Positions 2,017 through 60,764 are shown, counted from the first letter of the stretch. The stretch: 64,000 nt of DNA from Peptococcaceae bacterium (GCA_049366715.1 JBMNCQ010000004.1:100470-164469); one strand, 5' to 3'. A program made the numbers and translations. The notes: generated by a model from the sequence alone, not told the origin.

Positions 2017-2041
2017 GTGTCAGGGGACGGTTCTTTGACAC
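2017..2041 (+). repeat. Hairpin repeat copy A (class 1): GTGTCA-GGGGACGGTTCT-t-TGACAC
   Basis: 6-bp inverted arms around the invariant 12-nt core. Preceded by a tandem TGTGTCAG duplication (2007-2022). Confidence 0.85.
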
Positions 2042-2374
2042 ATTTGCCGGTGAATCTGGGGATTTAAATTTTACAGTGCGGTTGGGATTGATTGAGAAAT
2101 ATCACATTAATTAGTAATGGGGCTGTTAGTGCAACAGCCCCTTGTAGGTAGATATTATCAGTGAACTATTAATATGGTGAGGGGTAGGGAATGAGAAAAA
2201 ATACATTGGATTTAAATACTATTTAAAAGCTAAAGCGTCGCTCTGGTTTGAAGATTGCTTTTGATACTGTTAGTCATATGATTTTGGTATCATTCCCCAC
2301 TTCGCACATAGCCACAGGTAGTGATGTTTTATGTTTATTTATAAAGCGTTGTACCTGTTTTTCTCCGCTAAAAT

Positions 2375-3064
2375 TCATTCCGCAGGCGGCATTGCAGAAA
2401 CGAAATCTCTAAGACCATTATCAGAATAGAAGACATAACTTTTCACGCCATGCACTCGGCAAATATAGATTACCTCATCGGTCATTTGGACAGGGATAAG
2501 ATAGGAATGACCATTCACACGTGGGAATCTGATCCTTATATTATCAGATTTGATATACCCACCCCCTGCGGCCTCTCGATATTTTTCCTGTTCTCCAACA
2601 CTCAGCGGCTCAAGTTCCATACAAAATTTTACCAGTTTAGGTATATCCGCTTCGCCGACTGATCTCCGAATTCCATTGTAATACACCCCAACCCTCTCCG
2701 GTGATATGGTATAAGCTGTATTTATGATCTGCTGCGATTGAATCCGAAACGCCCCCAACAGCCCTGCGGATATCGTGAAACCGATTAGTAGCGCGAGAAC
2801 GGGCGCTTGCCATTTCTTTGTTTTCCATAGCAGAACTGCGGCAACAATCGGCGCGACAACTAATGCTGTTAAAATCGCTGTACCATAGCCTTCGGGCGCG
2901 TTGAAATAAGTCAGCTTATCCGGGGAAAAGAGAAACACCATCTTTTCATCGATGTACACAGCCTTTATGTTGATGAAGCAATATACAATAAGAGTCAGAA
3001 AAAGGAAGGCAATCGCCCAATCGCGCCTCCGGGTAATTTTTAGTTTCTTGATTTTCTCAATCAT
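2375..3064 (-). CDS. Hypothetical membrane protein, last gene of the ECF sigma operon
   Basis: 229-aa ORF overlaps the anti-sigma gene by 8 nt. It has hydrophobic segments and I recognise no family. Confidence 0.5.
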   Translation of the reverse strand: MIEKIKKLKITRRRDWAIAFLFLTLIVYCFINIKAVYIDEKMVFLFSPDKLTYFNAPEGYGTAILTALVVAPIVAAVLLWKTKKWQAPVLALLIGFTISAGLLGAFRIQSQQIINTAYTISPERVGVYYNGIRRSVGEADIPKLVKFCMELEPLSVGEQEKYREAAGGGYIKSDNIRIRFPRVNGHSYLIPVQMTDEVIYICRVHGVKSYVFYSDNGLRDFVSAMPPAE

Positions 3065-4019
3065 TGGTCATTCTCCCTTTCTTCATCACATTACTGTAAT
3101 TCCGGCCGGCAATTGATTGGGCAAATTCGGGTGAAATACGATACAGCGTTCCCCGACTTGTTAGCAAATATTGCTTCTCGCAGTTAATAAGAACAAGCAT
3201 GGTCTCCTTTTGATGTCTCCACGTAAATATGACCGGTATTTCCTCGTTGTGGTCACGCATTATGCTGTCATCCTGTACCAAGCCTGAATAGAAAATATTG
3301 TATATATCAGCATCTTTTCCTGGGGTCCAAACTATCGATGCCCCTTCCTTTTCAGGCGGTATCCAAATCTCCTCCACATTTTTCAGCGTTTCCATCTGCT
3401 TGATTTGATAGGCGTTAAAACCAAAGGATAAACCAACCGACAGCACGATCAATACAGCCCAGCAGGCAAGAAATTTCATAAGTCGCTGTAGCGTGAATAT
3501 TCGTTTGTCGCCGGTACAGTAGGCTAACGCTCCATAAATGGCTCCACCGAACAGGACTGCAACAACCCGCTCAGCGATCAGAGTTGCAAAGACCGACTCC
3601 GGGAAAAAATCCGTCTTTAGAAAACTCAGCCCCCCATACCGGATTTCTATATCCGAGTGATGATGCAGCAGGGTATGAATCCAGAAACTGAGTTTATAAG
3701 GGACTGCGATCACAGCCTTTAGCGGCCAGAACCCCATCGTCCTGTAGCTATAGCTGAACCATCCCAAAACCAAGCCAACAATTGTAAAGATAACGATCCT
3801 GCTGATGCCCTTGTCAAATTTTACGACTTGCTGTTTCAGCGTGTCAGGATTCCCTTGATATACGGTTTGCGGTAATTTCATTTTTTGTTCTGCGTCCAGA
3901 TATTCGTCGACCATAGCAGAACATTGCGGGCACCCAGCAAGGTGTGCTTCCAGTTCAGGATCATCGGAACCTTGTGAGTTCAGATAGGATAAGACTCTAT
4001 CATGATATTCGCAGTTCAT
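3057..4019 (-). CDS. Anti-sigma factor (zf-HC2 N-terminus, membrane-spanning)
   Basis: N-terminal HLAGCPQCSAMVDEY zinc-finger motif followed by several TM segments. It abuts the ECF sigma gene directly (4019/4020). Confidence 0.7.
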   Translation of the reverse strand: MNCEYHDRVLSYLNSQGSDDPELEAHLAGCPQCSAMVDEYLDAEQKMKLPQTVYQGNPDTLKQQVVKFDKGISRIVIFTIVGLVLGWFSYSYRTMGFWPLKAVIAVPYKLSFWIHTLLHHHSDIEIRYGGLSFLKTDFFPESVFATLIAERVVAVLFGGAIYGALAYCTGDKRIFTLQRLMKFLACWAVLIVLSVGLSFGFNAYQIKQMETLKNVEEIWIPPEKEGASIVWTPGKDADIYNIFYSGLVQDDSIMRDHNEEIPVIFTWRHQKETMLVLINCEKQYLLTSRGTLYRISPEFAQSIAGRNYSNVMKKGRMTND

Positions 4020-4535
4020 TCAATCACCCCTTGATTCTCCAGACCACTGCTGATACAGTGCCTGATATCGTTTCCTCGCACGAAAGATCCGCAATTTGAC
4101 AGCCGACTCCGACAGCCCCATGATCCGCCCGATTTCCTGATAGGACAATTCCTCATAGTCGCGCAAAAGCAAGACAGACCGGTCGTCCTCCCGTAACGCA
4201 AGCAAAACGTTTCTTATCATTTGTTCATGTTCGCGCAGCAGGATGTTTTCTTCCGGGTCAATACACAGCGCGGGCAACAGATTTGCCCACTCCTGTTCTT
4301 TCAGTAGGATGGGTTTTTTCTTTCTTGCATAGGAGAGAAACGTATTACGAGCAATTTTCAATACCCAAGTTTTTTCACTGCAATCTCCACGAAAGTGGAA
4401 TAAATTCAGGTATATCTTAAGAAAAGTATCCTGGCTCAAATCCTCAGCCGTTTTGCCATCTTTTGTCATGTAAAGCAAATATGCATAAACGACATCTTTC
4501 TGCCGTTCGTAGATATGGTTAAATCGCGCTTTCAC
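4020..4535 (-). CDS. ECF-type RNA polymerase sigma-70 factor
   Basis: Region 2 (DLSQDTFLKIYLNLFHF) and region 4 HTH (LSYQEIGRIMGLSESAVKLRIFRARKRY). Confidence 0.9.
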   Translation of the reverse strand: MKARFNHIYERQKDVVYAYLLYMTKDGKTAEDLSQDTFLKIYLNLFHFRGDCSEKTWVLKIARNTFLSYARKKKPILLKEQEWANLLPALCIDPEENILLREHEQMIRNVLLALREDDRSVLLLRDYEELSYQEIGRIMGLSESAVKLRIFRARKRYQALYQQWSGESRGD

Positions 4536-4696
4536 ACGCTCTCTCCTTCCTTTCCGAGATAAATGATCCTTTTGTAGATATAGACGCGCGCTTTACCCAA
4601 AAGTTACTCTGTTATCATAAATAACTCCAATACAGCATTCTGAAATAAGTTTTCCGCTAGGGATTCTGCAATTCTATTTCGTTCATTTTGAAAAGT

Positions 4697-4721
4697 GTGT
4701 CACAGAACCGTCCCTTGACAC
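4697..4721 (-). repeat. Hairpin repeat copy B (class 1, inverted): GTGTCA-cAGAACCGTCCCt-TGACAC
   Basis: Reverse complement reads GTGTCA-AGGGACGGTTCT-g-TGACAC, with one G>A change in the core. Inverted partner of copy A across the sigma operon. Confidence 0.85.
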
Positions 4722-4802
4722 AATGTAGACACTCTATCTTCAAAGTGAAGAACAAATTGAGATATGCAGCCGGACCAACTTTTAACTCCACACTTTTAGA
4801 CC

Positions 4803-4927
4803 TTAGATTCCTTCCCACGGGAAATCAAACGTATTATTTTCCACGATCCACCTACGTATCGTTGTTGAAGTAACCCCAATACCCCGGCAATCTCTTCTGC
4901 TTTTTACCAAATTTTGCGACTAGCCAT
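4803..4927 (-). pseudogene. Decayed small HTH (excisionase/HTH_17-like) gene remnant
   Basis: My - strand translation gives MASRKIW*KAEEIAGVLG, then after a frameshift VTSTTIRRWIVENNTFDFPWEGI*. It is a classic short HTH interrupted by a stop and a frameshift, about 80 bp from hairpin B. Confidence 0.35.
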
Positions 4928-5393
4928 ATTATTTCTCTTTTATATTCAGGATAAAAACTTTTTGGTTTTGTTTTTCGGTACTGACAATTCCTCTCGCATT
5001 TTTACTATAGATAATTCTATGTAGCTAGCAAAAAAGAAATTTTAAAAAGTTATCTTCTAACCGCTACATCGGCACTGGTATGTTTGCAAGTCAGATTATC
5101 TGCGGCGAGAGGACTTTCAAAAAAGTGATTTGTGACGGTGTTAAAAGTTACTCGCCGAACATAGCTGAAATGTTCACAAAAAAAGCTTGTGGTTTTAACA
5201 TAAAAGTTTTGTTTGAATGCCATAAATAAAAATTATACTATAAAGATGCAAACGATTACAGTAATTTCCGTAAGCAGCATCATATTAAAAGCGAATTAAG
5301 AAAGAAAACGAATGGCATAAGTGAACACCTTTAACCATAAAATTTTCGGACTTTTCGAAAGACTACAATTATTTTAAGAGGAGGCGAAGATAT

Positions 5394-6824
5394 ATGTCTT
5401 ATCCAAATGTTTATCCAACAGGTGTTACGATTTATAACCCTGAAAAGTGCTGGAATGGTTATACAATTCTACCTGCTAAAGAGCTTGGGGCACTACTCAT
5501 TAATATGAATGGAGCGGAAGTGAATCTTTGGGAAGGGCTACATGGATTTCCTAACAAAATGTTGCCAGGAGGATATGTTCTGGGGCATACAGGTGAACGA
5601 CCTAGTAGATTTGGACTCCAAGATCAAAAGGATCTTGTTCAAGTTGACTGGGATGGAAATATCGTTTGGAAATTTAATAAATATGAATATGTAGAAGACC
5701 CTGGTGAAGAGCCGCAATGGATGGCTAGGCAACACCATGATTATCAAAGGGAAGGGAATCCTGTTGGGTATTATGTGCCAGGTATGGATCCCTTCATAGA
5801 TAAAGGAAATACATTACTCCTGGTACACAAAAATCATGTAGTTCCCCAGCTATCCCCCTATGAACTCTCAGATGACGCCATTATTGAAGTTACTTGGGAT
5901 GGTGATATTATATGGGAGTGGGTCTGTTGTGACCACTTTGAAGAACTAGGGTTCAGTGAAGCTGCAAAAAACATATTGCATAGAGATCCGAATCTTAGGG
6001 GAACAGGCAAAGGAGACTGGATGCATATCAACTCAATGTCGGTGCTTGGTCCTAATAAGTGGTATGATGCCGGTGATGAGCGCTTTCATCCCGATAATGT
6101 TATATGGGATGCACGGGAAACAAATATATTGGCTATCATTGATAAGAAGACAGGGAAAATTGTATGGAAAGTTGGACCAGATTATGATAAAGGTGACGAA
6201 GCTAAACTAGGTTGGATTATTGGTCAACACCATTGTCATATGATTCCTCGCGGATTACCGGGTGAAGGAAATATTTTAGTGTTTGATAATGGTGGTTATG
6301 CCGGCTACGGAGCACCTCATGCAAGTTCAAAGACTGGTAGAAAAATTGCTTTAAGAGACTATACTCGTGTTTTAGAGTTTGATCCGGTTACCTTAGATAT
6401 TATTTGGCAATACACACCTGCAGAAGCAGGATTGCTTATGCCCTATGATGCACATCGCTTTTATAGTCCATTTATTAGTAGTGCTCAAAGGCTTCCTAAT
6501 GGAAATACATTGATTACCGAGGGATCCGGCGGAAGAATTATGGAAGTCACTCAAGATCATGAAGTAGTTTGGGAGTATATTAGCCCTTATTGGGGAAATA
6601 AAATGAAAATCAATATGGTATATCGAGCATACAGATTACCGTACGCTTGGGTTCCACAAGTTGAGAAACCTGTAGAAACTCAGATTGAGCGAATTGATGT
6701 AAAAACATTTCGCGTTTCAGGTGCGGAGTCGGTACGACTAAAACAAACTAAGGTTGATGGGGTTACGCCGTTTGATATCGGTGCCGGTTTATGTATCGGA
6801 ACTTTTGAAGAACTAAAGAAGTAG
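5394..6824 (+). CDS. Arylsulfotransferase (ASST)-family protein, no signal peptide
   Basis: 476 aa with strong RBS GAGGAGG. Beta-propeller-like repeats with His-rich motifs (ARQHHDYQ, IGQHHCHMIP) typical of ASST-like proteins. The N-terminus MSYPNVYPTG has no leader. Confidence 0.6.
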   Translation: MSYPNVYPTGVTIYNPEKCWNGYTILPAKELGALLINMNGAEVNLWEGLHGFPNKMLPGGYVLGHTGERPSRFGLQDQKDLVQVDWDGNIVWKFNKYEYVEDPGEEPQWMARQHHDYQREGNPVGYYVPGMDPFIDKGNTLLLVHKNHVVPQLSPYELSDDAIIEVTWDGDIIWEWVCCDHFEELGFSEAAKNILHRDPNLRGTGKGDWMHINSMSVLGPNKWYDAGDERFHPDNVIWDARETNILAIIDKKTGKIVWKVGPDYDKGDEAKLGWIIGQHHCHMIPRGLPGEGNILVFDNGGYAGYGAPHASSKTGRKIALRDYTRVLEFDPVTLDIIWQYTPAEAGLLMPYDAHRFYSPFISSAQRLPNGNTLITEGSGGRIMEVTQDHEVVWEYISPYWGNKMKINMVYRAYRLPYAWVPQVEKPVETQIERIDVKTFRVSGAESVRLKQTKVDGVTPFDIGAGLCIGTFEELKK

Positions 6825-6888
6825 TATATATTTATCAGGGGATAGGGATGTATTCCTACCCCTGATACCTCGAAAAGGAGTGTTAATT

Positions 6889-8298
6889 ATGAGTGAAAAG
6901 ATATTACTTCAAGAACAACCTGCCCAAAAGCTAGACGTTAAATTAATCTTAAAGTGGGCAACTCCGATTATTCTAGCTTTATTAGTTTATGGCCTAACTG
7001 CACCGTTAGGAGAAAGTGTTCGTTTATTTTCAACACTAACAATTTGGGCAGTTTTTTCTTGGGTTTTTGAAATTCTGCCGGAATCTTTAATTGCAATCAT
7101 GCTTGTAACTTTTTACATTTTAGCGGGAGTAGCAAAACCTGCTCAAGTATTTGCTCCTTGGCTTTCAAATATTCCTTGGATTGTATTTGGTGGGCTAATT
7201 TTAAGTATGGCTATGGGAAAAAGTGGTCTAGCCAAAAGAATTGCTTATAAGATTATAGCAGTTATAGGCACATCGTTTATAGGGATTCTTATAGGGTTAG
7301 GAATTATTGGGTTAGTATTAACTCCATTAATATCATCGCCGTCAGCGAAAGTCCTATTACTGGCACCAATTATTATTGGAATATTTCAGGCGTTAGATAT
7401 AAAACCTGGCTCAAAGGCAGGTACGGCACTTATGCTGGGTATTTTCTACGCAGTCTGGTCTCCTAGCTTTCTTTTCATTACTTCTAGTGAAGGTGCACTT
7501 GCTGTTCAAGCTGTACAAAAAGTTACCGGTGAGTCACTTACTTTCACCGGATACATGACTCATATGTCTCTAATTGCAGTATTGTGGACTTTCGTTTCCC
7601 TTGTCACCTTATTATTAATTAAACCAGGAAAATTGCATGTAAATAGGGATACTTTAGATAAAAACCTTAAAGAACTGGGAAGAATAACCAGAGAAGAGAA
7701 AAGCTGTGCATTGCTTTTTATTATAATGCTAATTTTATTCCTTACCGATAAATGGCATAAAACTAACCCTGCGTGGATTATTGTGTTAATTAGTTCACTT
7801 ATGTTTTTCCCTGGAATAAATGTTTTAAAAAAAGAAGATTTATCTAAGGTAAATTTTTTGATTCTCTTTTTTGTTACAGGCGCAATGGGAATTGGTGAAG
7901 CTGCCAACGCATGTGGAGCTACAAAAATTTTCACTGAAGCAGTTATCCCGTTTTTGCAAGATCAATCTGCATCCGCTGTAATCTTAGCAACCTGGCTTAT
8001 AGCGCTTATTGCCAATTTCTTACTAACGCCTGTTGCCATTATGGGAGCACTTTTTGTTCCAATTGTTGAGATTTTTAATACACTCGGTTTAAATCCCTAT
8101 ATAGGTCCGTATTCGTTAATACTAGGCTTTAGCCACCTGCTATTTCCGTATGAAATGGCACCTGCATTAGTAGTTTATTCCTTTGGGTATATTAAGTTAA
8201 ATGATATGATTAAACTGGGTTTTATAAGAATGATTGTAGGAGTTATTTTTATGCTACTTATAGTAATACCTTATTGGAAAATGATTAACCTAATGTAA
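6889..8298 (+). CDS. DASS/SLC13-type anion permease
   Basis: Polytopic protein of about 469 aa. Start set to the ATG at 6889, 8 nt after AAGGAG. Overall pattern matches divalent-anion:Na+ symporter / ArsB-NhaD superfamily permeases. Confidence 0.65.
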   Translation: MSEKILLQEQPAQKLDVKLILKWATPIILALLVYGLTAPLGESVRLFSTLTIWAVFSWVFEILPESLIAIMLVTFYILAGVAKPAQVFAPWLSNIPWIVFGGLILSMAMGKSGLAKRIAYKIIAVIGTSFIGILIGLGIIGLVLTPLISSPSAKVLLLAPIIIGIFQALDIKPGSKAGTALMLGIFYAVWSPSFLFITSSEGALAVQAVQKVTGESLTFTGYMTHMSLIAVLWTFVSLVTLLLIKPGKLHVNRDTLDKNLKELGRITREEKSCALLFIIMLILFLTDKWHKTNPAWIIVLISSLMFFPGINVLKKEDLSKVNFLILFFVTGAMGIGEAANACGATKIFTEAVIPFLQDQSASAVILATWLIALIANFLLTPVAIMGALFVPIVEIFNTLGLNPYIGPYSLILGFSHLLFPYEMAPALVVYSFGYIKLNDMIKLGFIRMIVGVIFMLLIVIPYWKMINLM

Positions 8299-8319
8299 TG
8301 AAAAAATAGATTGGAGATT

Positions 8320-8365
8320 TATATAAACCGGGGTTGATTTAGCCCCGGTTTATATAATGTTTTTG
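8320..8365. terminator. Bidirectional rho-independent terminator between convergent genes
   Basis: TATATAAACCGGGG-ttgatttag-CCCCGGTTTATATA followed by a T-run. Lies between the + strand stop at 8298 and the - strand stop at 8366. Confidence 0.75.
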
Positions 8366-9304
8366 CTAAAATGAATATTCTTTCAAAGAAATTGTTTTGA
8401 GGGTTTTGACAAATTTCTTTGCGGTAGGTGATAGTAAAGTATCTTTAAAAGTTATATATACTATCAGAAGTTCAAAATCAATCTTGGTTTTAATTGGTAT
8501 ATTTACAAAGAGACCTTTTTTTTCGTAACTCTTAGATAGACCATGTGAAATACCTATAGCTAGTCCACTACCAATAATTTCTTGATAAAAATCAAAATCC
8601 CAATTTGCAGTTTTAATTTTAATATTAGGTTCGCCAACACTTTCGAACATTTTGTGGATTGTTTTGATATGCTGTTGAGCATTAAAAACAACAATGGGGT
8701 ATTTTATCAACTCGTTAGGGGTAACAAATTTTCTTTTTGCTAGAGGTGAATTAGGTGCTATACTAGCAAACACTTCACATTTACAGAGTATATCGAAATT
8801 TAAATCTTTTTTATCATTTTCGTCCAGATCATCAAAGGCGTATTTTCTTATGCACAAGAGGCCAATTGTATTATTTTTGTTTTTAAATTCTTTAATTAAT
8901 TCATATGCAGGTAATTCAATGACATTTAAAGCCACTTGAGGATTTCTTTTGTAAAAGGCTAATACTGTTTTTTGCAAAATAGTTTTACTCAACAAATGGG
9001 TTGTGAGAATGCTTAATTCTTTGGCCGTACCAGCTTCTGAGCTTAGGTCGGGTGAAAATAATTCTAACATCTCATCGTATTTTTTTAAAATTTCCTTAGC
9101 GATTTCTATGGCTAGTTTTCCTTCATGTGTAAGAATAAGATTGTTAGATTTACGCTCAAATATAATACCGCCAAGTTCATTTTCGAGGCTTTTAATGGTA
9201 TAACTTAAGCCTTGTTGTGACATGTGCAAAATTTCGGCAGTATGTGAGATTGAACCTATTTTAGCTATATGAACCATTGCCCTTAGCTGATCTATACGCA
9301 TCAT
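8366..9304 (-). CDS. LysR-family transcriptional regulator
   Basis: N-terminal HTH MRIDQLRAMVHIAKIGSISHTAEILHMSQQGLSYTIKSLE plus a LysR substrate-binding half. Confidence 0.9.
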   Translation of the reverse strand: MMRIDQLRAMVHIAKIGSISHTAEILHMSQQGLSYTIKSLENELGGIIFERKSNNLILTHEGKLAIEIAKEILKKYDEMLELFSPDLSSEAGTAKELSILTTHLLSKTILQKTVLAFYKRNPQVALNVIELPAYELIKEFKNKNNTIGLLCIRKYAFDDLDENDKKDLNFDILCKCEVFASIAPNSPLAKRKFVTPNELIKYPIVVFNAQQHIKTIHKMFESVGEPNIKIKTANWDFDFYQEIIGSGLAIGISHGLSKSYEKKGLFVNIPIKTKIDFELLIVYITFKDTLLSPTAKKFVKTLKTISLKEYSF

Positions 9305-10080: not shown

Positions 10081-10103
10081 CAATGTGTCATGTGTCAGGG
10101 GAT

Positions 10104-10128
10104 GTGTCAGGGGACGGTTCTTTGACAC
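10104..10128 (+). repeat. Hairpin repeat copy C (class 1), identical to copy A
   Basis: GTGTCAGGGGACGGTTCTTTGACAC. Preceded by tandem partial duplications ATGTGTCA / TGTGTCAGGGG / ATGTGTCAGGGG (10084-10113). Confidence 0.85.
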
Positions 10129-10338
10129 ACCCTTCTTTGCACACTTTCCGATTTAAATCCAATAAAGCAGCAATCTTCCGGATTGACAACTGGATTTGGC
10201 TTTTAAGATCACCAGTATCTCTTATAAATAATGTTTATTGTCTTTACTTTTCCATTTACTCATTGATAATCTCTTTGCTTTTAAGTACTCTTCTAAAATA
10301 CCCGGCCTCCTCCGAAGATAATCGTGTCCCGTCGGGTT

Positions 10339-10363
10339 GTGTCACAGAACCGTCCCCTGACAC
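10339..10363 (-). repeat. Hairpin repeat copy D (class 1, inverted)
   Basis: Reverse complement is GTGTCA-GGGGACGGTTCT-g-TGACAC. It forms an inverted doublet with copy C, 210 bp apart. Confidence 0.85.
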
Positions 10364-10586
10364 ACCTCGACACGATGATAGTGCCGGACCAGTAATCATA
10401 ACTGAAGGTCTTGCTGTCTATCGTGGTATTTCCCAGCTATCCTGATTGTTAATGAAATAATTAAACACGTAACATAAAATTTAACAGGTAACAAAAGTTT
10501 TTGAATTTTTGTAGACCCCGTTGCTTTCCCCTCAAAAAAGCCGCTCTCTCTGAGAGCGGCTAAGTGAAAATGACCGGAAGCGGGCT

Positions 10587-50268: not shown

Positions 50269-51042
50269 TTACCATTCTTCAGGGGGGAGAATATCTTTTA
50301 AACTTTCGTAAGATTTTCCCTGGGCAATTGCATCAACCAAAACTTCTTCCCGTTTGGCATCTTGAAGCAGTCTCTCCAGCACTGCTTCAACCTGATCATA
50401 GGGAATAAAACAAACACCATTGTCATCAGCTACCACTAAATCTCCGGGATTTACAGATACACCGCCGCAGGCAATAGGTCCATTTATCTCTATCGTTCCT
50501 ACCCGGTGCCTCCCGGTTATAGGAGTTACGCCTCTGCTCCAAACTCCGAATCCTAATCTTCTCATTAAGCCTGTATCCCTGACTCCTCCGTCGACAATAC
50601 AAGCGGCTACTCCCGAATTAACGGCATATTGAGTAGAAAGGCCACCCATCGTGGAAATTTCACTCCTGCCGCCATTATCAAAAACAACGATATCCCCGGC
50701 CCGGGCTATTGCATATGCGTCTTTATCACCCAATTTAGCTTTTTTAGATGTTTGCAAAGCTTCCTTGGGCACGACCTCCTCCGGAATATATCTGATTGTT
50801 ATGGCCGGACCTGCAACGACTTTTCCGGAGCAAACCGGTTTAAGAACAGAGGCCGGTACCGTCCTGGCTATTCCTAAATCATCTAGAATATCAGAAATTG
50901 AAGGAGTAGGGTCTTCAATAGCCATAAAGCTTTTAATAATTTCTTTTGCTGGTCTGGGAAAGCTTATTTTCACAAAATTTTCCTTGTCTACTACGCCGGC
51001 AAGCTTGTGCTCAACTTCTTTCCATTCGTCCGCTTTTATCAA
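50269..51042 (-). CDS. RraA-like / class II HMG-CHA aldolase-oxaloacetate decarboxylase family protein
   Basis: GDIVVFDNGG..STMGGLSTQYAVNSGVAACIVDGGVRD motif. Start set to the TTG at 51042, after GAGGAGG. Confidence 0.7.
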   Translation of the reverse strand: MIKADEWKEVEHKLAGVVDKENFVKISFPRPAKEIIKSFMAIEDPTPSISDILDDLGIARTVPASVLKPVCSGKVVAGPAITIRYIPEEVVPKEALQTSKKAKLGDKDAYAIARAGDIVVFDNGGRSEISTMGGLSTQYAVNSGVAACIVDGGVRDTGLMRRLGFGVWSRGVTPITGRHRVGTIEINGPIACGGVSVNPGDLVVADDNGVCFIPYDQVEAVLERLLQDAKREEVLVDAIAQGKSYESLKDILPPEEW

Positions 51043-51112
51043 AATTAATCCTCCTCTCAATCAACCTATTTTTTTTGACATTTAAAGTATAGTCCAAACT
51101 TAAAACAACAGA

Positions 51113-51151
51113 TATCGATTTGTTGAGTTCTTATTTGTATATCTTGCTATG
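51113..51151 (+). repeat. 39-bp direct repeat copy 1 (TATCGATTTGTTGAGTTCTTATTTGTATATCTTGCTATG)
   Basis: 36 of 39 positions identical to 55539-55577. Lies 71-109 bp upstream of the RraA-like start. Confidence 0.85.
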
Positions 51152-51416
51152 TATCGTCAACCGACCAAGGGGAATTCTGAATGCCAATATTTCCCTGCAT
51201 AACTGCACCTTAATTAGTCTCATTACTCATGAGCTAAAAAAGCGGTCCGGAATTTTATCCGGGCCGCCATAGGTTACGGAAATCATTGCTGCTGTTTCAT
51301 TATGGAATTCTCCACCAGCACTATTTAAAGCCAAAATCCGGCAGAGTTGTCTGACGTTTAAAAAGAATCGGGTGAATATGCTTTGCATCTTCCGAGTAGA
51401 AATCCCGGGCAGAATT

Positions 51417-54038: not shown

Positions 54039-54130
54039 TGGCAGTCACAAACCTCCTTAATTATAATGAAGACATACCGACATCAGAAGACCGCCGGTAT
54101 GTCATTAACAAATGACCTCTTAGCTGAATC

Positions 54131-55138
54131 CTATTTCGACAGGGCCCTGATCTCGTCCAGCTTATCTCCATATTCAGCTTTGTATTTCTCATACACAGGC
54201 TGAACAGCTTCGGTAAAGCTGGTCTTGTCCGGATAATTAACAGTCATGCCGGCCGCCTCCATAGCAGCAACGTCGGCATTAACTTTTCTTGCTTCCTCCC
54301 GCTGGTAAATTTTCGCTTTATCGGCAGCATCCAGCAAAATCCCCTGATCTTCTTCAGACAGAGAATTAAATAGCTCGGCATTAATCAGCAGCTCGGCAGG
54401 AGCATAAAGGTGCTCGGTCATAGCAAGATATTTATTAACTTCGAAAATCTTACCGTCGCGTACTGCCATCAGCGGGTTTTCCTGTCCGTCGATGGTACCC
54501 TGGGATAAAGCTGTATATACTTCCCCCCAGGACATAGGTGTTGCATTTGCCCCCATAGCGTTGAAAGCTGCGATATGAATCTCACTTTCCATAGTACGAA
54601 TCTTCATATTTTCCAAATCTGCCACCGTATTGATCGGTTTATTGGAGGTCATATTTCTGAACCCGTTTTCAAAATATGCCAAACCCACAATACCGATATC
54701 ATTCAATTCATCCAAAAGGGATTTGCCGATCTCACCGTCAAGAACAGCCGCCACATGATCGAAGTCCCTGAACATATACGGGAATTCAAACACACTAAAG
54801 TTTTTCGAGAAATTAGTCAGAGGTGCGTTAGTAGTAATACACATATCTATGGTTCCTATTCCGGTTCCCTCAACCAGGTCACGTTCTTGCCCAAGAGTAC
54901 CGGCAGGGTAAATTTCAACTTGTATTCTTGAATCCGTTGCTTCTTCCACTAATTCTTTGAAACGAACGGCACCTAGATGATAGGGATGAGCTTCAGTCTG
55001 GCCATGCCCAAGTTTAATAACAACGGCCTCGCTCTCAGTCTTATCTGCAGCTGGAGTAGGTTCAGATTTCGAACTGCAGCCGGTAAAAATTGTTAATATG
55101 AACACCAAAATTAATATTATTGCACTCAATCTCTTCAT
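54131..55138 (-). CDS. dctP: TRAP transporter solute-binding lipoprotein
   Basis: Lipobox IFTGCSSKS and a DctP-family body. Confidence 0.9.
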   Translation of the reverse strand: MKRLSAIILILVFILTIFTGCSSKSEPTPAADKTESEAVVIKLGHGQTEAHPYHLGAVRFKELVEEATDSRIQVEIYPAGTLGQERDLVEGTGIGTIDMCITTNAPLTNFSKNFSVFEFPYMFRDFDHVAAVLDGEIGKSLLDELNDIGIVGLAYFENGFRNMTSNKPINTVADLENMKIRTMESEIHIAAFNAMGANATPMSWGEVYTALSQGTIDGQENPLMAVRDGKIFEVNKYLAMTEHLYAPAELLINAELFNSLSEEDQGILLDAADKAKIYQREEARKVNADVAAMEAAGMTVNYPDKTSFTEAVQPVYEKYKAEYGDKLDEIRALSK

Positions 55139-55538
55139 TAAAATTTCCTCCCCTTTTAATTTGCCTTACTTTTAGCCTCATGCATCATTGTCTAGAAAAA
55201 CTTGTAATGCAAAATGACTTTTAAGTCTTTCTTATAGAAGAATACGCGCCACCACCTCCTAAATACTATAATATTGTCGTAACAACAGGCGCTCAGCACC
55301 TGTTTCTTATATCCACTAAAAGCACACTCAGCATATTTTTCAAAACTAAATCATCATAACCGTTATCTCAAGAAAACACGTTAAATCGGTAATGTGAAAA
55401 TCTAATTTTTCTCTACATACTTTATAGTTAAAATCAGAACTTTCGATAAAATTTGCTCAATTTTATGGAACAAATCCTCTAAAAGGAAGTCTGAGATGAG
55501 TCCGTATTCTAAGTATAAGGCAAATTATATGGATCAAC

Positions 55539-55577
55539 TATCGATTTGTTGAGATATTATTTGTATATCTTGCTATG
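55539..55577 (+). repeat. 39-bp direct repeat copy 2
   Basis: TATCGATTTGTTGAGATATTATTTGTATATCTTGCTATG, 401-439 bp upstream of the second dctP start. Confidence 0.85.
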
Positions 55578-55653
55578 GATATTATGGATATTACGGATAT
55601 GGATATCGCGGAAGCATAGGCGAAGCATGGGGAAGCATGGGGAAGCATGGGGG

Positions 55654-55682
55654 GGAAGCATGGGGACGGTTCTTTTGCTTCC
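55654..55682 (+). repeat. Hairpin repeat copy E (class 2): GGAAGCA-tGGGGACGGTTCTtt-TGCTTCC
   Basis: 7-bp arms around the invariant core. Preceded by about four tandem GAAGCATGGGG units (55617-55665). Confidence 0.85.
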
Positions 55683-55856
55683 TCTCCCCCAAAACCGTCC
55701 TGATCCTCGAAGGCCACCGGAGGATCTCAGCCGCTAAAATTCCGTTAGAAATCTTTTTTAAGCCTATCTTAAACTGTTTAATTATTATAACACTCTAATT
55801 ATTCAGAGGCATTTAGCAGCACTTTCCTCCCTGCCGTCAAGCCCTTGATACAAATT

Positions 55857-55902
55857 AAGCACAAGCAGACAACCCCTTCCCGGACTTGTTTGCTTGTGCT
55901 TC
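55857..55902 (-). terminator. Stem-loop downstream of sstT (weak terminator)
   Basis: AAGCACAAGCA..N..TGCTTGTGCTT stem 80 bp past the stop. The U-tract is poor. Confidence 0.4.
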
Positions 55903-55981
55903 TATCGTATAATATTAATTTGTTATTATATCAGCCTAATTATAGAAATAAAGAAAATCAAGGAAGCAGCATAAATTCATT

Positions 55982-57214
55982 CTATTTCCTGATAATAATT
56001 TCTCTGCCTTCTTTACGCCATTGGGCAAATTCAGCTACTGCCGTAAAAAGCACATCTGTGGATGAGTTAAGGGCTGTTTCACAGGAATCCTGTACAACCC
56101 CTATGATAAATCCCACTCCAACTACCTTCATTGCAATGTCATTGGGAATGCCAAATAAACTACACGCCAGGGGGATCAATAATAGTGACCCCCCGGCTAC
56201 TCCGGAAGCGCCGCAAGCACTTATGGCCGCCATGATACTGAGGATTAGCGCTGTAGCCATATCTACTTCAATACCTAAGGTATTAACCGCTGCGAGGGTC
56301 AAAATAGTAATTGTAATAGCCGCACCGGCCATATTAATGGTAGCCCCTAATGGGATAGATACAGAATAAGTATCTTTATCTAACCCCAGTTTTTCACATA
56401 AACTCATATTCACAGGAATATTTGCCGCCGAACTACGGGTAAAAAATGCAGTAATCCCACTTTCCCTTAAACACTTAAATACAAGGGGATACGGGTTTTG
56501 CCGGATATTTATCAATGCTATAATCGGATTGACAATAAGTGCCATAAAAAACATTGTTCCGACCAAAACGGTAAGTAACTGTCCGTAGCTAAGTAAAGAT
56601 TGTATTCCATTGGTAGCAATAGCTTCAAATACCAGCCCCATAATTCCTAGCGGGGCCAGGCTGATAACCCATCTAACCATTTGGGATAATGCTCCTGAGA
56701 AATCAGCTATCATTGTCTTTGTAGAATCAGGTGCCGACCTTAATGCAAGACCCAAAAGTACCGCCCAGGACAATATTCCAATATAATTAGCATTATAAAG
56801 TGCTTTAACAGGGTTATCAACGATATTCAGCAGCAATGTCTTGAGAACCTCGGCTACACCTCCGGGAGGAGTCATATTCTCTGCCCCTGCGGTAAGTGTT
56901 AAGCTTACCGGGAACATAAAACTTGTCACGATTGCTGTCAGGGCAGCCAAAAATGTTCCTAGCAAATAGAGTAGGATAATGGATTTCATATTCGTTTGCT
57001 GACCACTCTGGTGCTGAGAAATAGCCGACATAACCAGAAAGAACACCAGTATAGGGGCAATTGCTTTTAAAGCGCCTACAAATAAAGAACCTAGAATAAC
57101 GATAGGCCTTGCCATATCCGGAATTGTCACAGCTAAAATAATCCCTATAATCAAACCTACAATTATTCGTTTCACTAAGCTCAGTTGATTCCACCTCTGC
57201 AATAATTTAATCAA
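55982..57214 (-). CDS. sstT: Serine/threonine:Na+ symporter SstT (DAACS family)
   Basis: Near-colinear with E. coli SstT ([89 protein letters not shown]). Confidence 0.95.
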
Positions 57215-57455
57215 ATTTTATCTTCCTCCCATAGATATAATAGAAAAATTTTTTCGGCCGACTAATAATATTTAGTCTGCACCAAGTACAATTTTACCAT
57301 TAACCCTCATCAACATGAAACAATAAAATATCAAAAACAAGTAAAAAAATATGCCAAATTTTTCTATAGACATCCACGTTCTGGTTTAGAAAAAGCTCCT
57401 AAAAAAAAACAAGGCCGCACTACGCAGCCTGCTTATTTATAATATTTACCGTTTA

Positions 57456-57475
57456 GGAAGCAGAAGAACCGTCCC
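57456..57475 (-). repeat. Hairpin repeat copy F (class 2, inverted; left arm decayed)
   Basis: GGAAGCA-gaAGAACCGTCCCC. The reverse complement carries the intact core plus the TGCTTCC arm, while the opposite arm is degenerate. Confidence 0.75.
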
Positions 57476-57497
57476 CGCGCATCTGCCGTCCTTTAAT

Positions 57498-57851
57498 CTA
57501 CCAGCCTCCTGTTTTCTTCATATATTTAACATATTCTTTATATTCATTACCCCACTGGGCTAAGCCTTCGATAACCGGCAGCAGCTTTATGCCAATTTCC
57601 GTTAATGAATACTCTACCTTAGGAGGAACTTCCGGGTATACCTTCCGCTTTATAAGGTGATAACTTTCGAGACTTCGCAGTTCTTTTGTCAAAGTGGATT
57701 GCGTCATGCTCGGCATTAAGCGGTTTAGTTCTCCGAAGCGCAGAATTCCCTTACTCAGGTGATATAATATCAGGATGGTCCACTTACCGCCAATTATTTT
57801 CTGGGCTGTTGAAACAGGACAATTTATAAATCCATCGTTATTATGCTTCAT
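57498..57851 (-). CDS. HxlR-family transcriptional regulator
   Basis: CPVSTAQKIIGGKWTILILYHL..FGELNRLMPSMTQSTLTKELRSLE..PPKVEYSLTEIG. Confidence 0.9.
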   Translation of the reverse strand: MKHNNDGFINCPVSTAQKIIGGKWTILILYHLSKGILRFGELNRLMPSMTQSTLTKELRSLESYHLIKRKVYPEVPPKVEYSLTEIGIKLLPVIEGLAQWGNEYKEYVKYMKKTGGW

Positions 57852-57980
57852 TGTTTCCTACCTCCATACTATCTTTCTTGATAGTATCTATCAAAAATAA
57901 CTATACTTGACACATTGATTGTAACATCATAAGTTATATGCGTAAATAAATTTATCATAAATTAGAAAGAAGGTTATAAA

Positions 57981-58379
57981 GTGGAGAAAATTATTAATTT
58001 TCTAAAAGAAAACCCCGTATTCTATTTTGCGACTGTAGATGGTAACAAACCTAAAGTTAGACCCTTTGGTTTTTTTATGGAATATAATGGGAAGCTGTAC
58101 TTTGGGATGGGCAAACATAAACAATCTTATCAGCAGGTTGTTACAAACCCCCATGTAGAAATATGTACTGCAAATGCCAAAGGACAGTGGATTAGGATTA
58201 GCGGGGTCGCTGTATTTGACGACAGTACAGAAACAATGGCTAAGGTATTCGAGACAATGCCCAGTTTAAAAGATATTTATAATGAGAAAAGCGGCTTAAT
58301 TCTTGGTAATTTTTATCTGGAGAGCGGAGTCGCCGAATTAGCCGATATCGCAGGTAATTTTGAAAAAATTAATTTTTAA
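57981..58379 (+). CDS. Pyridoxamine-5'-phosphate-oxidase-like FMN-binding split-barrel protein
   Basis: 132 aa with a GTG start, divergent from the HxlR gene, which is a common pairing. FYFATVDGNKPKVRPFGF pattern. Confidence 0.7.
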   Translation: MEKIINFLKENPVFYFATVDGNKPKVRPFGFFMEYNGKLYFGMGKHKQSYQQVVTNPHVEICTANAKGQWIRISGVAVFDDSTETMAKVFETMPSLKDIYNEKSGLILGNFYLESGVAELADIAGNFEKINF

Positions 58380-58500
58380 AGCTAATTATACATATTCTTT
58401 ATTTATCTAAACTTAAGTTTTATACCATCACAAATAACCCAAATAAACAAATCAACCGAACACTCCAAATTTATCCAGCCATCATAGTTATGATAAAGGA

Positions 58501-58530
58501 TACTCCGGATGATACCATTCATCCGGAGTA
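58501..58530. terminator. Perfect 11-bp stem-loop TACTCCGGATG-N8-CATCCGGAGTA between convergent genes
   Basis: Perfect inverted repeat. No strong U-tract on either strand. Confidence 0.45.
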
Positions 58531-58539
58531 TCTCTTAAA

Positions 58540-58566
58540 GAAGCAAGGGGACGGTTCTCCTGCTTC
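58540..58566 (+). repeat. Hairpin repeat copy G (class 2): GAAGCA-aGGGGACGGTTCTcc-TGCTTC
   Basis: 6-7 bp arms around the invariant core. Confidence 0.85.
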
Positions 58567-58580
58567 CATTCCCTTTCTCG

Positions 58581-59360
58581 CTAGGCCTTGAAAATCAGGT
58601 TTGGGGAAACCCCTAATATTCTTGCCGCCTGTCTTTGCGTTATTCCTTCTATTTTTTTAACCTTTTGTAAAATTTTATCCCTCTCGATCTTAGGAAGACT
58701 CTTTATTTGTGCGATTTCAACTCCAGTAATCAGCTTTAAGATTTCTTCTCTTACCTTCTCATCGGATAGCTGTACTTTTTCATTAAATCCCACATCTAAA
58801 CATCGATCATTATTTTCTCGTTCATTAAATTCCCTGAAACGCAACATAGCTGTATTCTCAACATCCGCAAACATCTGCAGGACAAAGCCGGTATTTAATA
58901 ATCCCACCGGTACAATGTTCTGTCCATAATATCCTGGACAACTGCTCCATTGCCAGTTCTCAAGTTTTTTTACCATTCCTGCCTGCCGGGGGTTTTGATG
59001 AATATATCTAAGTACGCTTAATAAATATTCGTTTGATTCTACCTTTTCGCTTCTAAATCTATCCTGAAAAAGATGACCTGTTGTTTTATATTTCTGATTA
59101 TAATACCATACAAAGCTCACCCCGATCCGCTTCATGGTAACAGAAAGGTCTTCATCACCCTCTTTTAAAAGAAGATGCAGATGATTGCTCATTAAACACC
59201 ATCCATATATTTCCATTTCAGCCGCCAATTTATATTTCTTTAAAATTTCCAGAAATCTTAATTTGTCTTCATCATCATGAAAAATCTCCTGTTTATTCGC
59301 TCCTCTGATCATTATGTGATATATCCCGCTTGCACTTTTCTCTCTAGCCACACGGGGCAT
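58581..59360 (-). CDS. REP-associated tyrosine transposase-like protein (Y1/HUH, IS200-like fold) with C-terminal HTH
   Basis: HUH motif CLMSNHLHLLL and Tyr helix LRYIHQNPRQAGMV. C-terminal HTH GITQRQAARILGVSPNLI. Start set to the ATG at 59360, after GAGGTGA. Confidence 0.8.
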   Translation of the reverse strand: MPRVAREKSASGIYHIMIRGANKQEIFHDDEDKLRFLEILKKYKLAAEMEIYGWCLMSNHLHLLLKEGDEDLSVTMKRIGVSFVWYYNQKYKTTGHLFQDRFRSEKVESNEYLLSVLRYIHQNPRQAGMVKKLENWQWSSCPGYYGQNIVPVGLLNTGFVLQMFADVENTAMLRFREFNERENNDRCLDVGFNEKVQLSDEKVREEILKLITGVEIAQIKSLPKIERDKILQKVKKIEGITQRQAARILGVSPNLIFKA

Positions 59361-59410
59361 CTTAATCACCTCAAATTTATTTTTAATCTATTATAACATT
59401 CCCCATTTTT

Positions 59411-59440
59411 GGAAGCAAAAGAACCGTCCCCGTGCTGTTC
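59411..59440 (-). repeat. Hairpin repeat copy H (class 2, inverted)
   Basis: GGAAGCA-aaAGAACCGTCCCCg-TGCTGTTC. The second arm carries a 1-nt insertion and a mismatch. Confidence 0.8.
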
Positions 59441-59493
59441 AAAGGACCATTAATTTCCGGAAGAACTCCGCCCCGGCATCAATACCGCCGGGA

Positions 59494-60552
59494 TTATAGA
59501 CCGTGTCCTGCACGCAACCCATTGCTACCGGCTGCCTTTTTAATATCTTCAATAAAAGCTAATACTTTTTCTTCTTTCGTTGCCCAGGAGGTAACGAGCC
59601 GGATAGCTGAACGATCAGCATTAACCTTTTCCCAGACATAAAAAGCATATTTCTGCTGCAGTTCAGCTATTACAGCATTTGGAAGTATGGGAAATATCTG
59701 ATTGGACGGAGAATGGATAAGAAATCCGAAGCCTGCCTTTTTTATTTCCTCCCGAAGTAAACCCGCCATCTTATTTGCATGTTGCGCCAGATCAAAATAC
59801 AGGTTATCCTCGAAAAGCTCCCAAAATTGTATCCCCAGGATTCTGCCTTTAGCCAGGAGAGCCCCCTTTTGTTTCATATGAAAGCGGAAGTTATCCTTAA
59901 GTGATTCATTGCATATGATCAGCGCCTCACCCAGGAGGGCTCCGTTTTTCGTTCCTCCTATGTAAAAAGCGTCCGCCAGTATGCCGAGGTCTTTCAGTTC
60001 CAGGTCATTCTCTGCGCAGCACAAAGCAGAACCCAGTCTGGCGCCGTCCATAAATAAAAAGAGATTATTTTCCCGGCAGAACCTGTTTAATTCTTGCAGT
60101 TCGGACTTATGATAAATTGATCCGATCTCTGTTGAATTAGAGATATACACCAGTTTGGGTTTAACCATGTGTTCATCAGTATGGATGTCAAGTACAGCTT
60201 TAATGCGGGCAGGGCTGACTTTTCCGTCGCCGGTTTCAACAGATATTACTTTATGGCCCGTCCCCTCTATGGCACCGGTCTCATGCACCAAAATATGACC
60301 TGTATGGCAGGCAATCACAGCCTCATATGGTTTTAGAAATGCTGAAATAGCCGTAAGATTAGTTTGGGTACCACCTACAAAGAAATGAATATCTATATCA
60401 TCTCTGCCGATTTTCTGTTTTAACAGTTCACTTGCTTTTTGCGAATAACTATCACAACCATAACCTGCAGCCTGTTCAAGGTTGGACTCTAATAATGCAT
60501 GCAAGATTCTGGGATGTGCTCCTTCACTATAATCGTTCTTAAAGCTATACAC
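59494..60552 (-). CDS. Low-specificity threonine aldolase (beta-eliminating lyase fold, PLP)
   Basis: YSFKNDYSEGAHPRIL..GYGCDSY..FFVGGTQTNL and PLP-lysine motif IGGTKNGALLGEA. Start set to the GTG at 60552, 9 nt after GGGGAGG. Confidence 0.85.
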   Translation of the reverse strand: MYSFKNDYSEGAHPRILHALLESNLEQAAGYGCDSYSQKASELLKQKIGRDDIDIHFFVGGTQTNLTAISAFLKPYEAVIACHTGHILVHETGAIEGTGHKVISVETGDGKVSPARIKAVLDIHTDEHMVKPKLVYISNSTEIGSIYHKSELQELNRFCRENNLFLFMDGARLGSALCCAENDLELKDLGILADAFYIGGTKNGALLGEALIICNESLKDNFRFHMKQKGALLAKGRILGIQFWELFEDNLYFDLAQHANKMAGLLREEIKKAGFGFLIHSPSNQIFPILPNAVIAELQQKYAFYVWEKVNADRSAIRLVTSWATKEEKVLAFIEDIKKAAGSNGLRAGHGL

Positions 60553-60743
60553 TTTACTAAACCTCCCCTTTATTCTCCACTTATCTCTCCGTCTCACCAT
60601 GAGCAAAACAGGACGTTTCTTAAATTCTTTACCATTTCTTCTCCCTCTCTTTCCTTAAAACCTTCCTCCGAGGTTCCTAAAACTTTATTTTATTTTATCC
60701 TATATATATCCCGCCGGTATTATTAAAAAGCACAGCACTCCTC

Positions 60744-60764
60744 GGAAGCAGGAGAACCGTCCCC
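60744..60764 (-). repeat. Hairpin repeat copy I (class 2, inverted; one arm decayed)
   Basis: GGAAGCA-ggAGAACCGTCCCC followed by a tandem CCCATGTTTTTCT x2 (60761-60790). Confidence 0.75.

Follow-up and report, generated by a model that had tools for sequence, protein, structure and literature searches.

A loop-conserved hairpin repeat family associated with a REP-associated tyrosine transposase gene in a Peptococcaceae bacterium and other Bacillota

A 64,000-nt stretch of DNA from a Peptococcaceae bacterium (hereafter the window; positions are numbered on one strand) carries nine copies, A to I, of a short repeat in which a 12-nt core, GGGGACGGTTCT, is placed between inverted arms, and one gene for a REP-associated tyrosine transposase (RAYT) that is enclosed by copies G and H. 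Comparison of the window with related loci showed that (i) the repeats are associated with RAYT genes, (ii) the copies flanking these genes keep a fixed geometry, (iii) the stem covaries, (iv) the loops are specific for transposase clades, and (v) the units have discrete ends. The repeats are thus most probably a REP-like family of hairpins specified by their loop and constituting the cognate sites of the RAYT, by which they would be recognized and probably mobilized. Copies G and H bound the gene, and the other seven copies are solo or paired intergenic derivatives that fall into two stem sub-families.

RAYTs are textbook domesticated transposases. Their known DNA partners are limited to the GTAG-REP groups, and the largest group has been reported without a REP-like partner. 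In the window and the fetched loci, members of this largest group accompany a compact hairpin in Firmicutes and in some neighboring phyla, and the finding is of interest because the group gains a defined DNA partner in Bacillota. The hairpin offers a defined 30-nt substrate for biochemistry, a marker for the annotation of repeats that are now unannotated and able to seed spurious open reading frames (ORFs), and a set of natural loop variants with their corresponding enzyme clades, with which the reading of DNA by Y1 HUH enzymes can be dissected.

The RAYT gene and its flanking hairpins

The protein encoded between copies G and H (Table 1) matches Pfam Y1_Tnp (E 1.7e-14) and the NCBIfam model NF047646 for REP-associated tyrosine transposases (80.5 bits; cutoff 80), and it is 100% identical to an NCBI protein of this name from a metagenome-assembled genome (MAG) of a Peptococcaceae bacterium. 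The catalytic residues H60 and H62 (NHLH) and Y119 (RYIHQNP) are invariant in 20 homologs, a WSS motif occupies residues 138-140, and the sequence is 60-73% identical across Clostridia and Bacilli. The C-terminal domain is helical, resembles a helix-turn-helix (HTH) domain and is highly conserved among 20 close homologs; HTH_23 matches it weakly (E 0.0035, under Pfam's cutoff), and the helices are present in the structural model. The only sequence-related solved structure is that of Escherichia coli TnpA_REP bound to a REP hairpin (PDB 4ER8; E 1.3e-7), which is also the best fold match of the AlphaFold model of the RAYT (pLDDT 84; TM 0.72 on the target), followed by the IS608 and ISDra2 transposases. 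The window holds one RAYT gene, and its neighbors are not tnpB.

Copies G and H are mutually inverted and both point towards the RAYT gene. The right arm of G ends 14 nt past the stop codon, and the core of H starts 60 nt upstream of the ATG. A ribosome-binding site, GAGGTG, is found at 59367-59372, and the -35-like hexamer of the putative RAYT promoter lies inside the right arm of copy H. This promoter stays below the threshold of a consensus scan because its -35 element matches at 3/6 positions only. Directly beside copy G, and distinct from it, there is a strong terminator-like hairpin with a 14-bp stem (58499-58532).

Association of hairpins with RAYT genes in other genomes

The association was tested on a set selected by protein similarity only, namely 80 metagenomic loci encoding RAYT homologs of 39-67% identity, with up to two mismatches allowed in the core. 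The core was found on the sense strand 60-70 nt upstream of the RAYT start at 40 of 76 homologous loci, and on the antisense strand 9-30 nt downstream of the RAYT stop at 39 of 74. When paired arms were required, the flanking copies were oriented inward in ratios of 39:0 and 40:1. Window copies H and G fit this geometry of -60 to -70 and +9 to +30. Most loci without the core keep the same architecture with another loop (GGGGACAGGTAC, GGGGACGGGGTT, GGGGACGTTTTG, GGGGACGGTGAC and others), and a GGGAC[AG][GT] core is located within 200 nt of 73 of the 78 intact homologs. The loop variants are clade-specific (protein cluster 12, for instance, has GGGGACGGGGTT/GGGGACGGGGTA throughout), and it is the 3' half of the loop that varies with the transposase clade. 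The arrangement of the promoter recurs as well: at 34 of 54 homologous loci a TTG[AC][CT][AT] hexamer lies in or beside the right arm of the upstream copy, so that the arm runs into a TTGACA-like -35 element, which is followed by the -10 element, a GGAGGTG ribosome-binding site and an ATG-CCx start.

A second search, by DNA motif only, scanned 185,579 species genomes for the core pattern and yielded at least 120 loci. Single matches of this kind prove nothing, because a 14-base pattern is expected thousands of times by chance. A covariance model that had been built without the pattern-scan loci matched 79 of the first 100 of them. Among the matches listed, these loci belong to Clostridia, Bacilli and Negativicutes, as well as Atribacterota, Coriobacteriia, two Bacteroidales MAGs and Micropruina, whereas the loci that fail the model include proteobacterial, archaeal and other singletons, as expected by chance. 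A RAYT gene or its remnant stands directly beside the core at 4 of the 120 motif-found loci, again among the matches listed. The earlier note on this stretch, made from its sequence alone, had proposed that the motif be sought in related genomes and modeled by covariance, and there it recurs; that note had missed the transposase gene between G and H, the pairing of the copies and the reiteration of the left arm, both described below. In Firmicutes this REP-like repeat system of hairpins and RAYT is common.

Relatives of the RAYT on plasmids are rare (22 of 72,556 records) and at most 35% identical, and a plasmid-borne origin was rejected on these grounds. The plasmid relatives show a GGGGWSAS theme in other architectures, as in GGGGTCAGACCCC of R. 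rubrum, GGGGTCAGGCCT of Sporomusa and GGGGACAGATTTATTTTCCC of P. aeruginosa.

Structure of the hairpin and covariation of its stem

The repeat is a DNA hairpin of about 30 nt with a stem of 6-8 bp, conserved apical C-A-A/T-T-G pairs and a loop of 13-14 nt carrying GGGGACGGTTCT. Its arms pair in a single register (position -k with position +(k+1)), where runs of five or more consecutive Watson-Crick pairs occur in half of the instances, compared with 0-8% in the neighboring registers. Covariation of the stem was analyzed in an alignment without gaps, made of 134 distinct instances that were drawn from the RAYT loci and the window and picked regardless of their stems. Double changes occur at all 8 stem pairs, and 67.7% of the cells are paired, against 37-48% with a slid partner. 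Cells changed on both sides number 279 versus 132 in shuffles, and the covariation score of 0.536 (versus 0.21) was matched by none of 500 shuffles; the shuffle control is inflated by sequence relatedness, a problem from which the slid control is free. The claim that the loop stays constant while the stem changes and remains complementary, first made for the nine window copies, holds for this wider set.

The consensus reads rAnACAA / GGGGACGGTTCT / yTTGTnT, with the three apical pairs conserved and the basal pairs free. Among 52 non-redundant hairpins, conservation is confined to the loop and the apical CAA/TTG, and position-by-position composition revealed no conservation outside -9 to +9. 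The two stem classes of the window are therefore two sub-families of a far larger set. Stems of the GAAGCA/TGCTTC type are found with the window RAYT's own clade in Peptococcaceae and Bacillaceae, and GTGTCA/TGACAC-like stems with other RAYT clades (clusters 9 and 25); both classes are adjacent in one Pelotomaculum MAG (L036).

The nine copies in the window

Eight of the window copies carry GGGGACGGTTCT exactly, and copy B carries AGGGACGGTTCT with one mismatch, an AGGG variant that is common beside the RAYT genes of other loci. In dinucleotide-preserving shuffles, 0.14 cores with up to one mismatch are expected by chance, and none of 100 shuffles attained nine. Allowing two mismatches adds just five window sites. 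One of these, on the minus strand at 897-908, was considered as a tenth copy and rejected on inspection of its arms, since the match is due to an unrelated palindrome at 880-933 (24-nt arms, 88% complementary; 6-nt loop) that lies downstream of an RpiR-type gene (976-1941). The covariance model, trained on 134 instances of which 9 are from the window, gives 27-40 bits to each of the nine copies and no more than 10.9 bits to any other site of the window; the nine copies are therefore the complete census of the window.

Table 1. Hairpin copies, RAYT gene and putative promoter in the window
Feature	Coordinates	Strand	Core start	Description
Copy A	2016-2042 (with reiteration 2008-2042)	+	2023	Class 1 hairpin; TGTGTCA / GGGGACGGTTCT / t / TGACACA; 31.2 bits; -5.0 kcal/mol as single-stranded DNA
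Copy B	4696-4722	-	4704	Class 1 hairpin; core variant AGGGACGGTTCT; 26.8 bits
Copy C	10103-10129 (with reiteration 10084-10129)	+	10110	Class 1 hairpin; 31.6 bits
Copy D	10338-10364	-	10346	Class 1 hairpin, convergent with C and 93% complementary to it; 29.8 bits
Copy E	55654-55682 (with reiteration 55610-55682)	+	55662	Class 2 hairpin; GGAAGCAt / core / tt / TGCTTCC; 39.6 bits
Copy F	57456-57484	-	57465	Class 2; core and right arm intact, left arm degraded; 29.0 bits
Copy G	58539-58567	+	58547	Class 2 hairpin; inverted repeat 3' of the RAYT gene; 40.2 bits; -6.7 kcal/mol as single-stranded DNA
Copy H	59411-59439	-	59420	Class 2; inverted repeat 5' of the RAYT gene, left arm degraded; 32.2 bits
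Copy I	60744-60783	-	60753	Class 2; right arm intact, left arm mutated to AAAAACA; 32.5 bits
RAYT gene	58581-59360	-		259 aa from ATG at 59360; in-frame GTG upstream at 59369; Y1 HUH domain
Putative RAYT promoter	59390-59418	-		-35-like TTGCTT at 59413-59418, 17-nt spacer, extended -10 TGtTATAAT at 59390-59398; read from the sequence

Copies A-D have arms (T)GTGTCA / TGACAC(A), the class 1 stem, and copies E and G have arms (G)GAAGCA / TGCTTCC, the class 2 stem; in the remaining class 2 copies F, H and I, the right arm TGCTTCC is kept and the left arm is degraded. All nine copies are outside credible genes; the only overlapping or adjoining ORFs, at 10083-10445 (over C and D) and 55845-56369 (near E), gave no family match. 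In these respects, namely the nine copies with their positions, strands and core variant, an abundance far above chance, the two arm classes with decay of the left arm in F, H and I, and the intergenic location, the earlier note described the window correctly.

Copies A to H alternate strictly between the plus and the minus strand, which yields the convergent pairs A/B, C/D, E/F and G/H. Pair A/B encloses a block of three genes (2375-4535), an ECF-type sigma factor gene (4020-4535) and two ORFs without a family match; in its geometry this arrangement is the same as that of G/H around the RAYT gene. Pair E/F encloses a dicarboxylate symporter gene (55982-57214). The sigma factor block and the symporter gene may be cargo units, or the arrangement may be a coincidence. 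Pair C/D, the closest in the window (236 nt apart), encloses 202 nt of DNA without a gene assignment; that it is an internally deleted RAYT unit was considered and rejected, as this interior has no protein similarity to the RAYT. Copy F lies between the stop codon of an HxlR-type gene (57498) and the terminator-like hairpin of that gene (57412-57430; 8-bp stem), which is directly beside F and distinct from it. Copy F is thus placed within the 3' untranslated region of the HxlR-type gene, since a separate terminator-like hairpin lies beyond it.

Apart from the hairpins, the window contains a 75-nt direct repeat (51080-51154 and 55506-55580; 77% identical). Its copies lie upstream of the starts of two minus-strand genes, 50269-51060 and a gene for a DctP-type binding protein (54131-55138), and may represent a shared regulatory region.

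Unit boundaries, clustering and dimers

Three loci, L132, L140 and L142 (in the latter, positions 130-579), have a hairpin-RAYT-hairpin block in common at 90-92% identity. The homology begins and ends at the outer hairpin arms, beyond which the sequences are unrelated, and the ends of these units show no target duplication. The block of L142 is an internally deleted unit of the L132 type, a derivative resembling a miniature inverted-repeat transposable element in which 404 nt of the gene are lost; the same contig has its own intact RAYT gene (3233-3991), just 74% identical to that of the L132-type unit. Judged from these sequences, the pattern fits a mobile or transferable module with non-autonomous derivatives.

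The earlier note had held that its reading would fall if all copies proved to be fragments of the terminal repeats of one ordinary insertion sequence (IS). The copies are indeed terminal repeats of a transposase unit, but this unit is no ordinary IS, and the 30-nt hairpin is also an independent dispersed unit.

The copies cluster around the gene. Five of the nine window copies are within 3 kb of the RAYT gene, and in Acetoanaerobium noterae, whose 2.63 Mb replicon has copies at 32 or more places, 15 are within 40 kb of the RAYT gene. These 15 copies (L201; NZ_CP154629.1, 401884-442612) have AGGGACGGTTCT as the core and AATCA/TGATT as the stem; their record, entered as a 'plasmid' of 2.63 Mb with just 4 annotated features, is probably a chromosome. 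In other genomes, neighboring copies spaced by 30-60 nt are convergent in 38 cases and divergent in 1, and in this they resemble REPIN dimers. Even apart from the two copies that flank the gene directly, copies up to 10 kb from a RAYT gene tend to point at it (20:3 upstream and 7:14 downstream, in loci L001-L200 and the window), although these counts are not independent, because several come from the same loci.

The class 2 copies of the window, with the right arm intact in all five and the left arm degraded in three, suggested that the left arm is provided by the target and that the right arm acts as an IS608-like guide. This possibility was not supported: across 49 multi-copy loci, the left arm has 338 mismatches to the family consensus and the right arm 317, and the families divide 22:19. 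Conservation of the outer arm in the three genomic contexts of L132, L140 and L142 is further evidence against it.

Reiteration of the left arm

Of 166 well-paired hairpins, 37 have the left arm, together with the first 3-12 bases of the core (mostly GGG), tandemly reiterated 5' of the core, whereas the right arm is present once. Four window copies show this feature. Copy A has a single reiterated unit, TGTGTCA+G, at 2008-2015, and copy C has the units TGTGTCA and TGTGTCAGGGGA at 10084-10102. Copy E has five tandem AAGCAT+G(4-7) units starting at 55612, 55623, 55633, 55643 and 55656, the fifth being the left arm of the hairpin itself. Copy I has one unit, AAACATGGG, and the reiteration evidently copies local sequence, because this unit carries the same mutation as the left arm of I.

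Reiteration is also found in a Pseudomonas relative and, as 22-nt arrays, in Micropruina. In the Micropruina MAG (L098), an inverted pair of tandem arrays with a period of 22 has 9 and 5 copies (1425-1625 and 1727-1843, respectively) of the unit GGTCACC-GGGGACGGTTCC-yyy, whose near-palindromic arm doubles as the right arm of the previous unit. The lengths of the reiterated core prefix are 3 in 14 cases, 4 in 6, 5 in 6, 8 in 3 and 12 in 9. They are too spread for the break points to represent one cleavage site, and this spread favors slippage on the G-run over one fixed nick; as far as the prefix lengths can tell, slippage is the favored origin of the reiteration.

Proposed mechanism

By analogy with IS608 and TnpA_REP, the hairpin would be extruded in single-stranded DNA, where the RAYT would read the structure through the stem and the identity through the loop sequence. 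The enzyme would then cut and rejoin the strand through Y119, and such events could spread or rearrange the copies, mostly locally. Binding of the RAYT at the upstream copy could, in addition, autoregulate the gene; such autoregulation is plausible because the right arm of this copy and the -35 region of the RAYT promoter overlap. The earlier suggestion that the loop is read in a sequence-specific manner gains indirect support, as a Y1 HUH transposase gene has these hairpins as its inverted terminal repeats and the 3' half of the loop depends on the clade.

With no conservation outside the hairpin, the determinants of recognition and cleavage should lie in the apical stem and the loop. Such a location, which is speculative, would be unlike IS608, where the guide and the site are outside the hairpin, and would recall the nick sites of rolling-circle Rep proteins. 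One can go further and suppose, tentatively, that the Bacillota hairpins are the missing cognate repeats of the largest, functionally orphan RAYT group (Group 1/subclass 2.1), with their identity encoded in the loop and a nick in the loop or at its edge, as in rolling-circle Rep systems. Nicking of the loop would explain why nothing is conserved outside the hairpin, why the 3' half of the loop is clade-dependent and why the reiteration is polar, comprising the left arm and 3-12 loop bases.

Several observations weigh against the proposal that the hairpins are cognate sites of the RAYT. Folded as single-stranded DNA, copies A-E and G form the expected hairpin with only weak stems (-5 to -6.7 kcal/mol, and overall in the range of -5 to -7 kcal/mol), copies H and I have no stable fold, and copy F folds in a shifted register. 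Copies F, H and I cannot make the hairpin, yet H is one of the two copies adjoining the gene. The class 1 stems are without a RAYT of their own in the window, which has no second RAYT gene. The overall correlation of loop with protein identity is modest (Spearman -0.13; 51 of 2000 permutations were as low), because the GGTTCT loop has spread through many deep clades; a strong global correlation was accordingly rejected, and the clade-specific signal stems from the minority loops. No pair of filled and empty sites was found for a solo hairpin, and transposition, binding and cleavage by the RAYT are inferred from related enzymes. Finally, a dimer binding double-stranded DNA would keep inverted symmetry too, so that covariation alone is no proof of a hairpin.

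Alternative explanations

The last point leads to an alternative in which the repeats are double-stranded operators. A dimeric protein, acting through the C-terminal HTH of the RAYT or being a regulator of the host, would bind the inverted arms about two helical turns apart, and the copies would form a regulon and not a mobile element. The spacing of 13-14 nt between the inverted arms, the overlap of the upstream copy with the -35 region at 34 of 54 loci, and the conserved helical C-terminal domain with its weak HTH_23 match are all in line with such operators, and a symmetric dimer would also predict covarying arms. However, the conserved part is the asymmetric 12-nt center and not the arms, which vary widely between genomes and fall into two classes even inside the window. 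Neither the position nor the orientation of the copies is consistent with respect to the starts of neighboring genes, tandem arrays and dimers with a spacing of 30-60 nt occur as well, and the unit is a discrete block in differing genomic contexts. We consider operators improbable.

To the same degree we doubt that the repeats are inert debris, that is, decayed ends of a once multi-copy IS-like unit, or by-products of slippage and recombination, left beside a RAYT that has been domesticated for another role. Debris is possible for single copies, for example F, H and I with their degraded arms; the left-arm reiterations copy the local arm variant in a slippage-like manner, a single RAYT gene is present in 64 kb, relatives on plasmids are as rare as 22 in 72,556 records, and the 16-mers flanking Group 1 RAYTs number about 12 copies per replicon (PMC5581495). 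For the family as a whole, the 12-nt core is perfect in 8 of 9 window copies despite differing flanks, which suggests either recent origin or constraint, the stems remain complementary over phylum-level divergence, and the RAYT retains all catalytic residues with 60-73% identity across Clostridia and Bacilli.

The earlier note had left open whether the hairpin acts as DNA or as RNA. The DNA reading is preferred, because the orientation of the copies relative to transcription is mixed, and a sequence-specific role in RNA is unlikely. That the repeats are terminators, mRNA stabilizers or small RNAs with a loop read by an RNA-binding factor is the least credible alternative and can be largely dismissed: copies F and H, 22-63 nt past stop codons in the sense orientation, would be transcribed, and REPs of E. 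coli do stabilize mRNA, but the six gene-downstream window copies are split between 3 sense (D, F and H) and 3 antisense (A, E and G), no T-run follows the stem, separate terminator-like hairpins adjoin F and G, and the conserved loop strand does not follow transcription, since at RAYT genes the upstream copy precedes the -10 box and the one downstream is without exception in antisense orientation to the mRNA. The criteria for an intrinsic terminator (GC-rich stem, loop of 3-8 nt, T-run) called none of the nine copies, and a known RNA family was rejected, as Rfam had no match at the gathering threshold in the whole window.

Comparison with known systems

The closest described system is that of the TIRtrons, in which TIRYT genes are flanked at fixed distances by 'long TIRs' (terminal inverted repeats) sharing the motif GGGGWSAS; some species have moderately abundant families of them (Di Nocera et al. 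2013, PMC3733652). TIRYTs probably correspond to subclass 2.1 of TnpA_Y1 (Quentin et al. 2018, PMC6006769) and to the Group 1 RAYTs of Bertels et al. 2017 (PMC5581495), as noted by Quentin et al., who by automatic and manual searches found neither REP-like sequences nor a REP-like secondary structure for subclass 2.1. Bertels et al. reported about 12 copies per replicon or genome of the 16-mers flanking Group 1 RAYTs. The sequence motifs of the window RAYT suggest that it probably belongs to subclass 2.1/Group 1.

Identity of the window RAYT is 41% over 145 aa (E 7e-38) with the Pelobacter TIRYT and 39% with the Desulforudis TIRYT, compared with 25% with E. coli TnpA_REP. Common to the window RAYT and the TIRYTs are the NHxH, FQ, Y..xNP and WSS signatures and a long HTH-like C-terminal tail. 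In both systems, inverted repeats starting with GGGG flank the gene at fixed distances and the repeat families are moderately abundant, and GGGGACAG of the sister clades, as well as GGGGTCAG of the plasmid-borne relatives, fits the published GGGGWSAS. The window sequence GGGGACGG, in contrast, matches this motif at 7 of 8 positions, with G for A at position 7. The repeat described here is a short hairpin with the GGGG motif inside the loop and a covarying stem, whereas the published repeats are long TIRs; the Bacillota hairpin is dispersed as solo units, dimers and arrays; and the C-terminal domain of the window RAYT fails to align with those of the Pelobacter and Desulforudis TIRYTs. Six Bacillota genera that were searched for in the text supplements of the 2013 paper are not named there, although its protein alignment does include the Firmicute Desulforudis (dau 2153). 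When the literature was searched for the 12-mer in either orientation and for the variant loops, the only results were chance matches to primers and the GGGGWSAS of Di Nocera et al., and we found no published description of hairpin repeats for the transposase branch of the window RAYT.

With the REPtrons (REP/REPIN-RAYT systems), the window system shares a low-copy Y1 HUH gene (one in the window) between inverted short extragenic palindromes that are also dispersed, and TnpA_REP (4ER8) as the best fold match in PDB. The convergent dimers seen in other genomes resemble REPINs, in which a short spacer separates two inverted REPs that form one long hairpin; the closest pair of the window, C/D, is 236 nt apart. 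The repeats are not canonical REPs, because the GT[AG]G foot at the 5' side of the stem is not conserved in the 52 non-redundant hairpins. The invariant part here is the 12-nt loop, whereas most REP loops have 2-5 nt with the stem conserved. Copies probably number in the tens, as suggested by at least 32 in the 2.63 Mb of Acetoanaerobium and 9 in the 64-kb window, versus hundreds of REPs, and the window protein is 100 aa longer.

The IS200/IS605 family (TnpA of IS608 and ISDra2) resembles the window system in the HUH/Tyr core and fold, in the hairpins at the ends and in that no target duplication is seen; it is the source of the single-strand mechanism proposed above. The ends of IS608 are not inverted, with both hairpins on one strand and cleavage outside the hairpins via a guide tetranucleotide, whereas the ends of the window unit are inverted. 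The IS200/IS605 transposases have a Y...Q motif, unlike the Y...NP (YIHQNP) of the window RAYT, and they are encoded by multi-copy, near-identical genes, whereas the window has a single transposase gene and no tnpB.

Hairpins at the nick sites of rolling-circle Rep proteins (the nonanucleotide origins of circoviruses and geminiviruses, and pT181-type plasmids) combine an invariant loop, a variable stem and an HUH endonuclease, as is the case here. The window system is without a replicon, a Rep-type helicase domain or evidence of nicking in the loop, and the likeness is one of design only. Taken together, the system is a TIRYT-type enzyme combined with a short hairpin that carries GGGG in a long invariant loop on a covarying stem and has spread through Bacillota.

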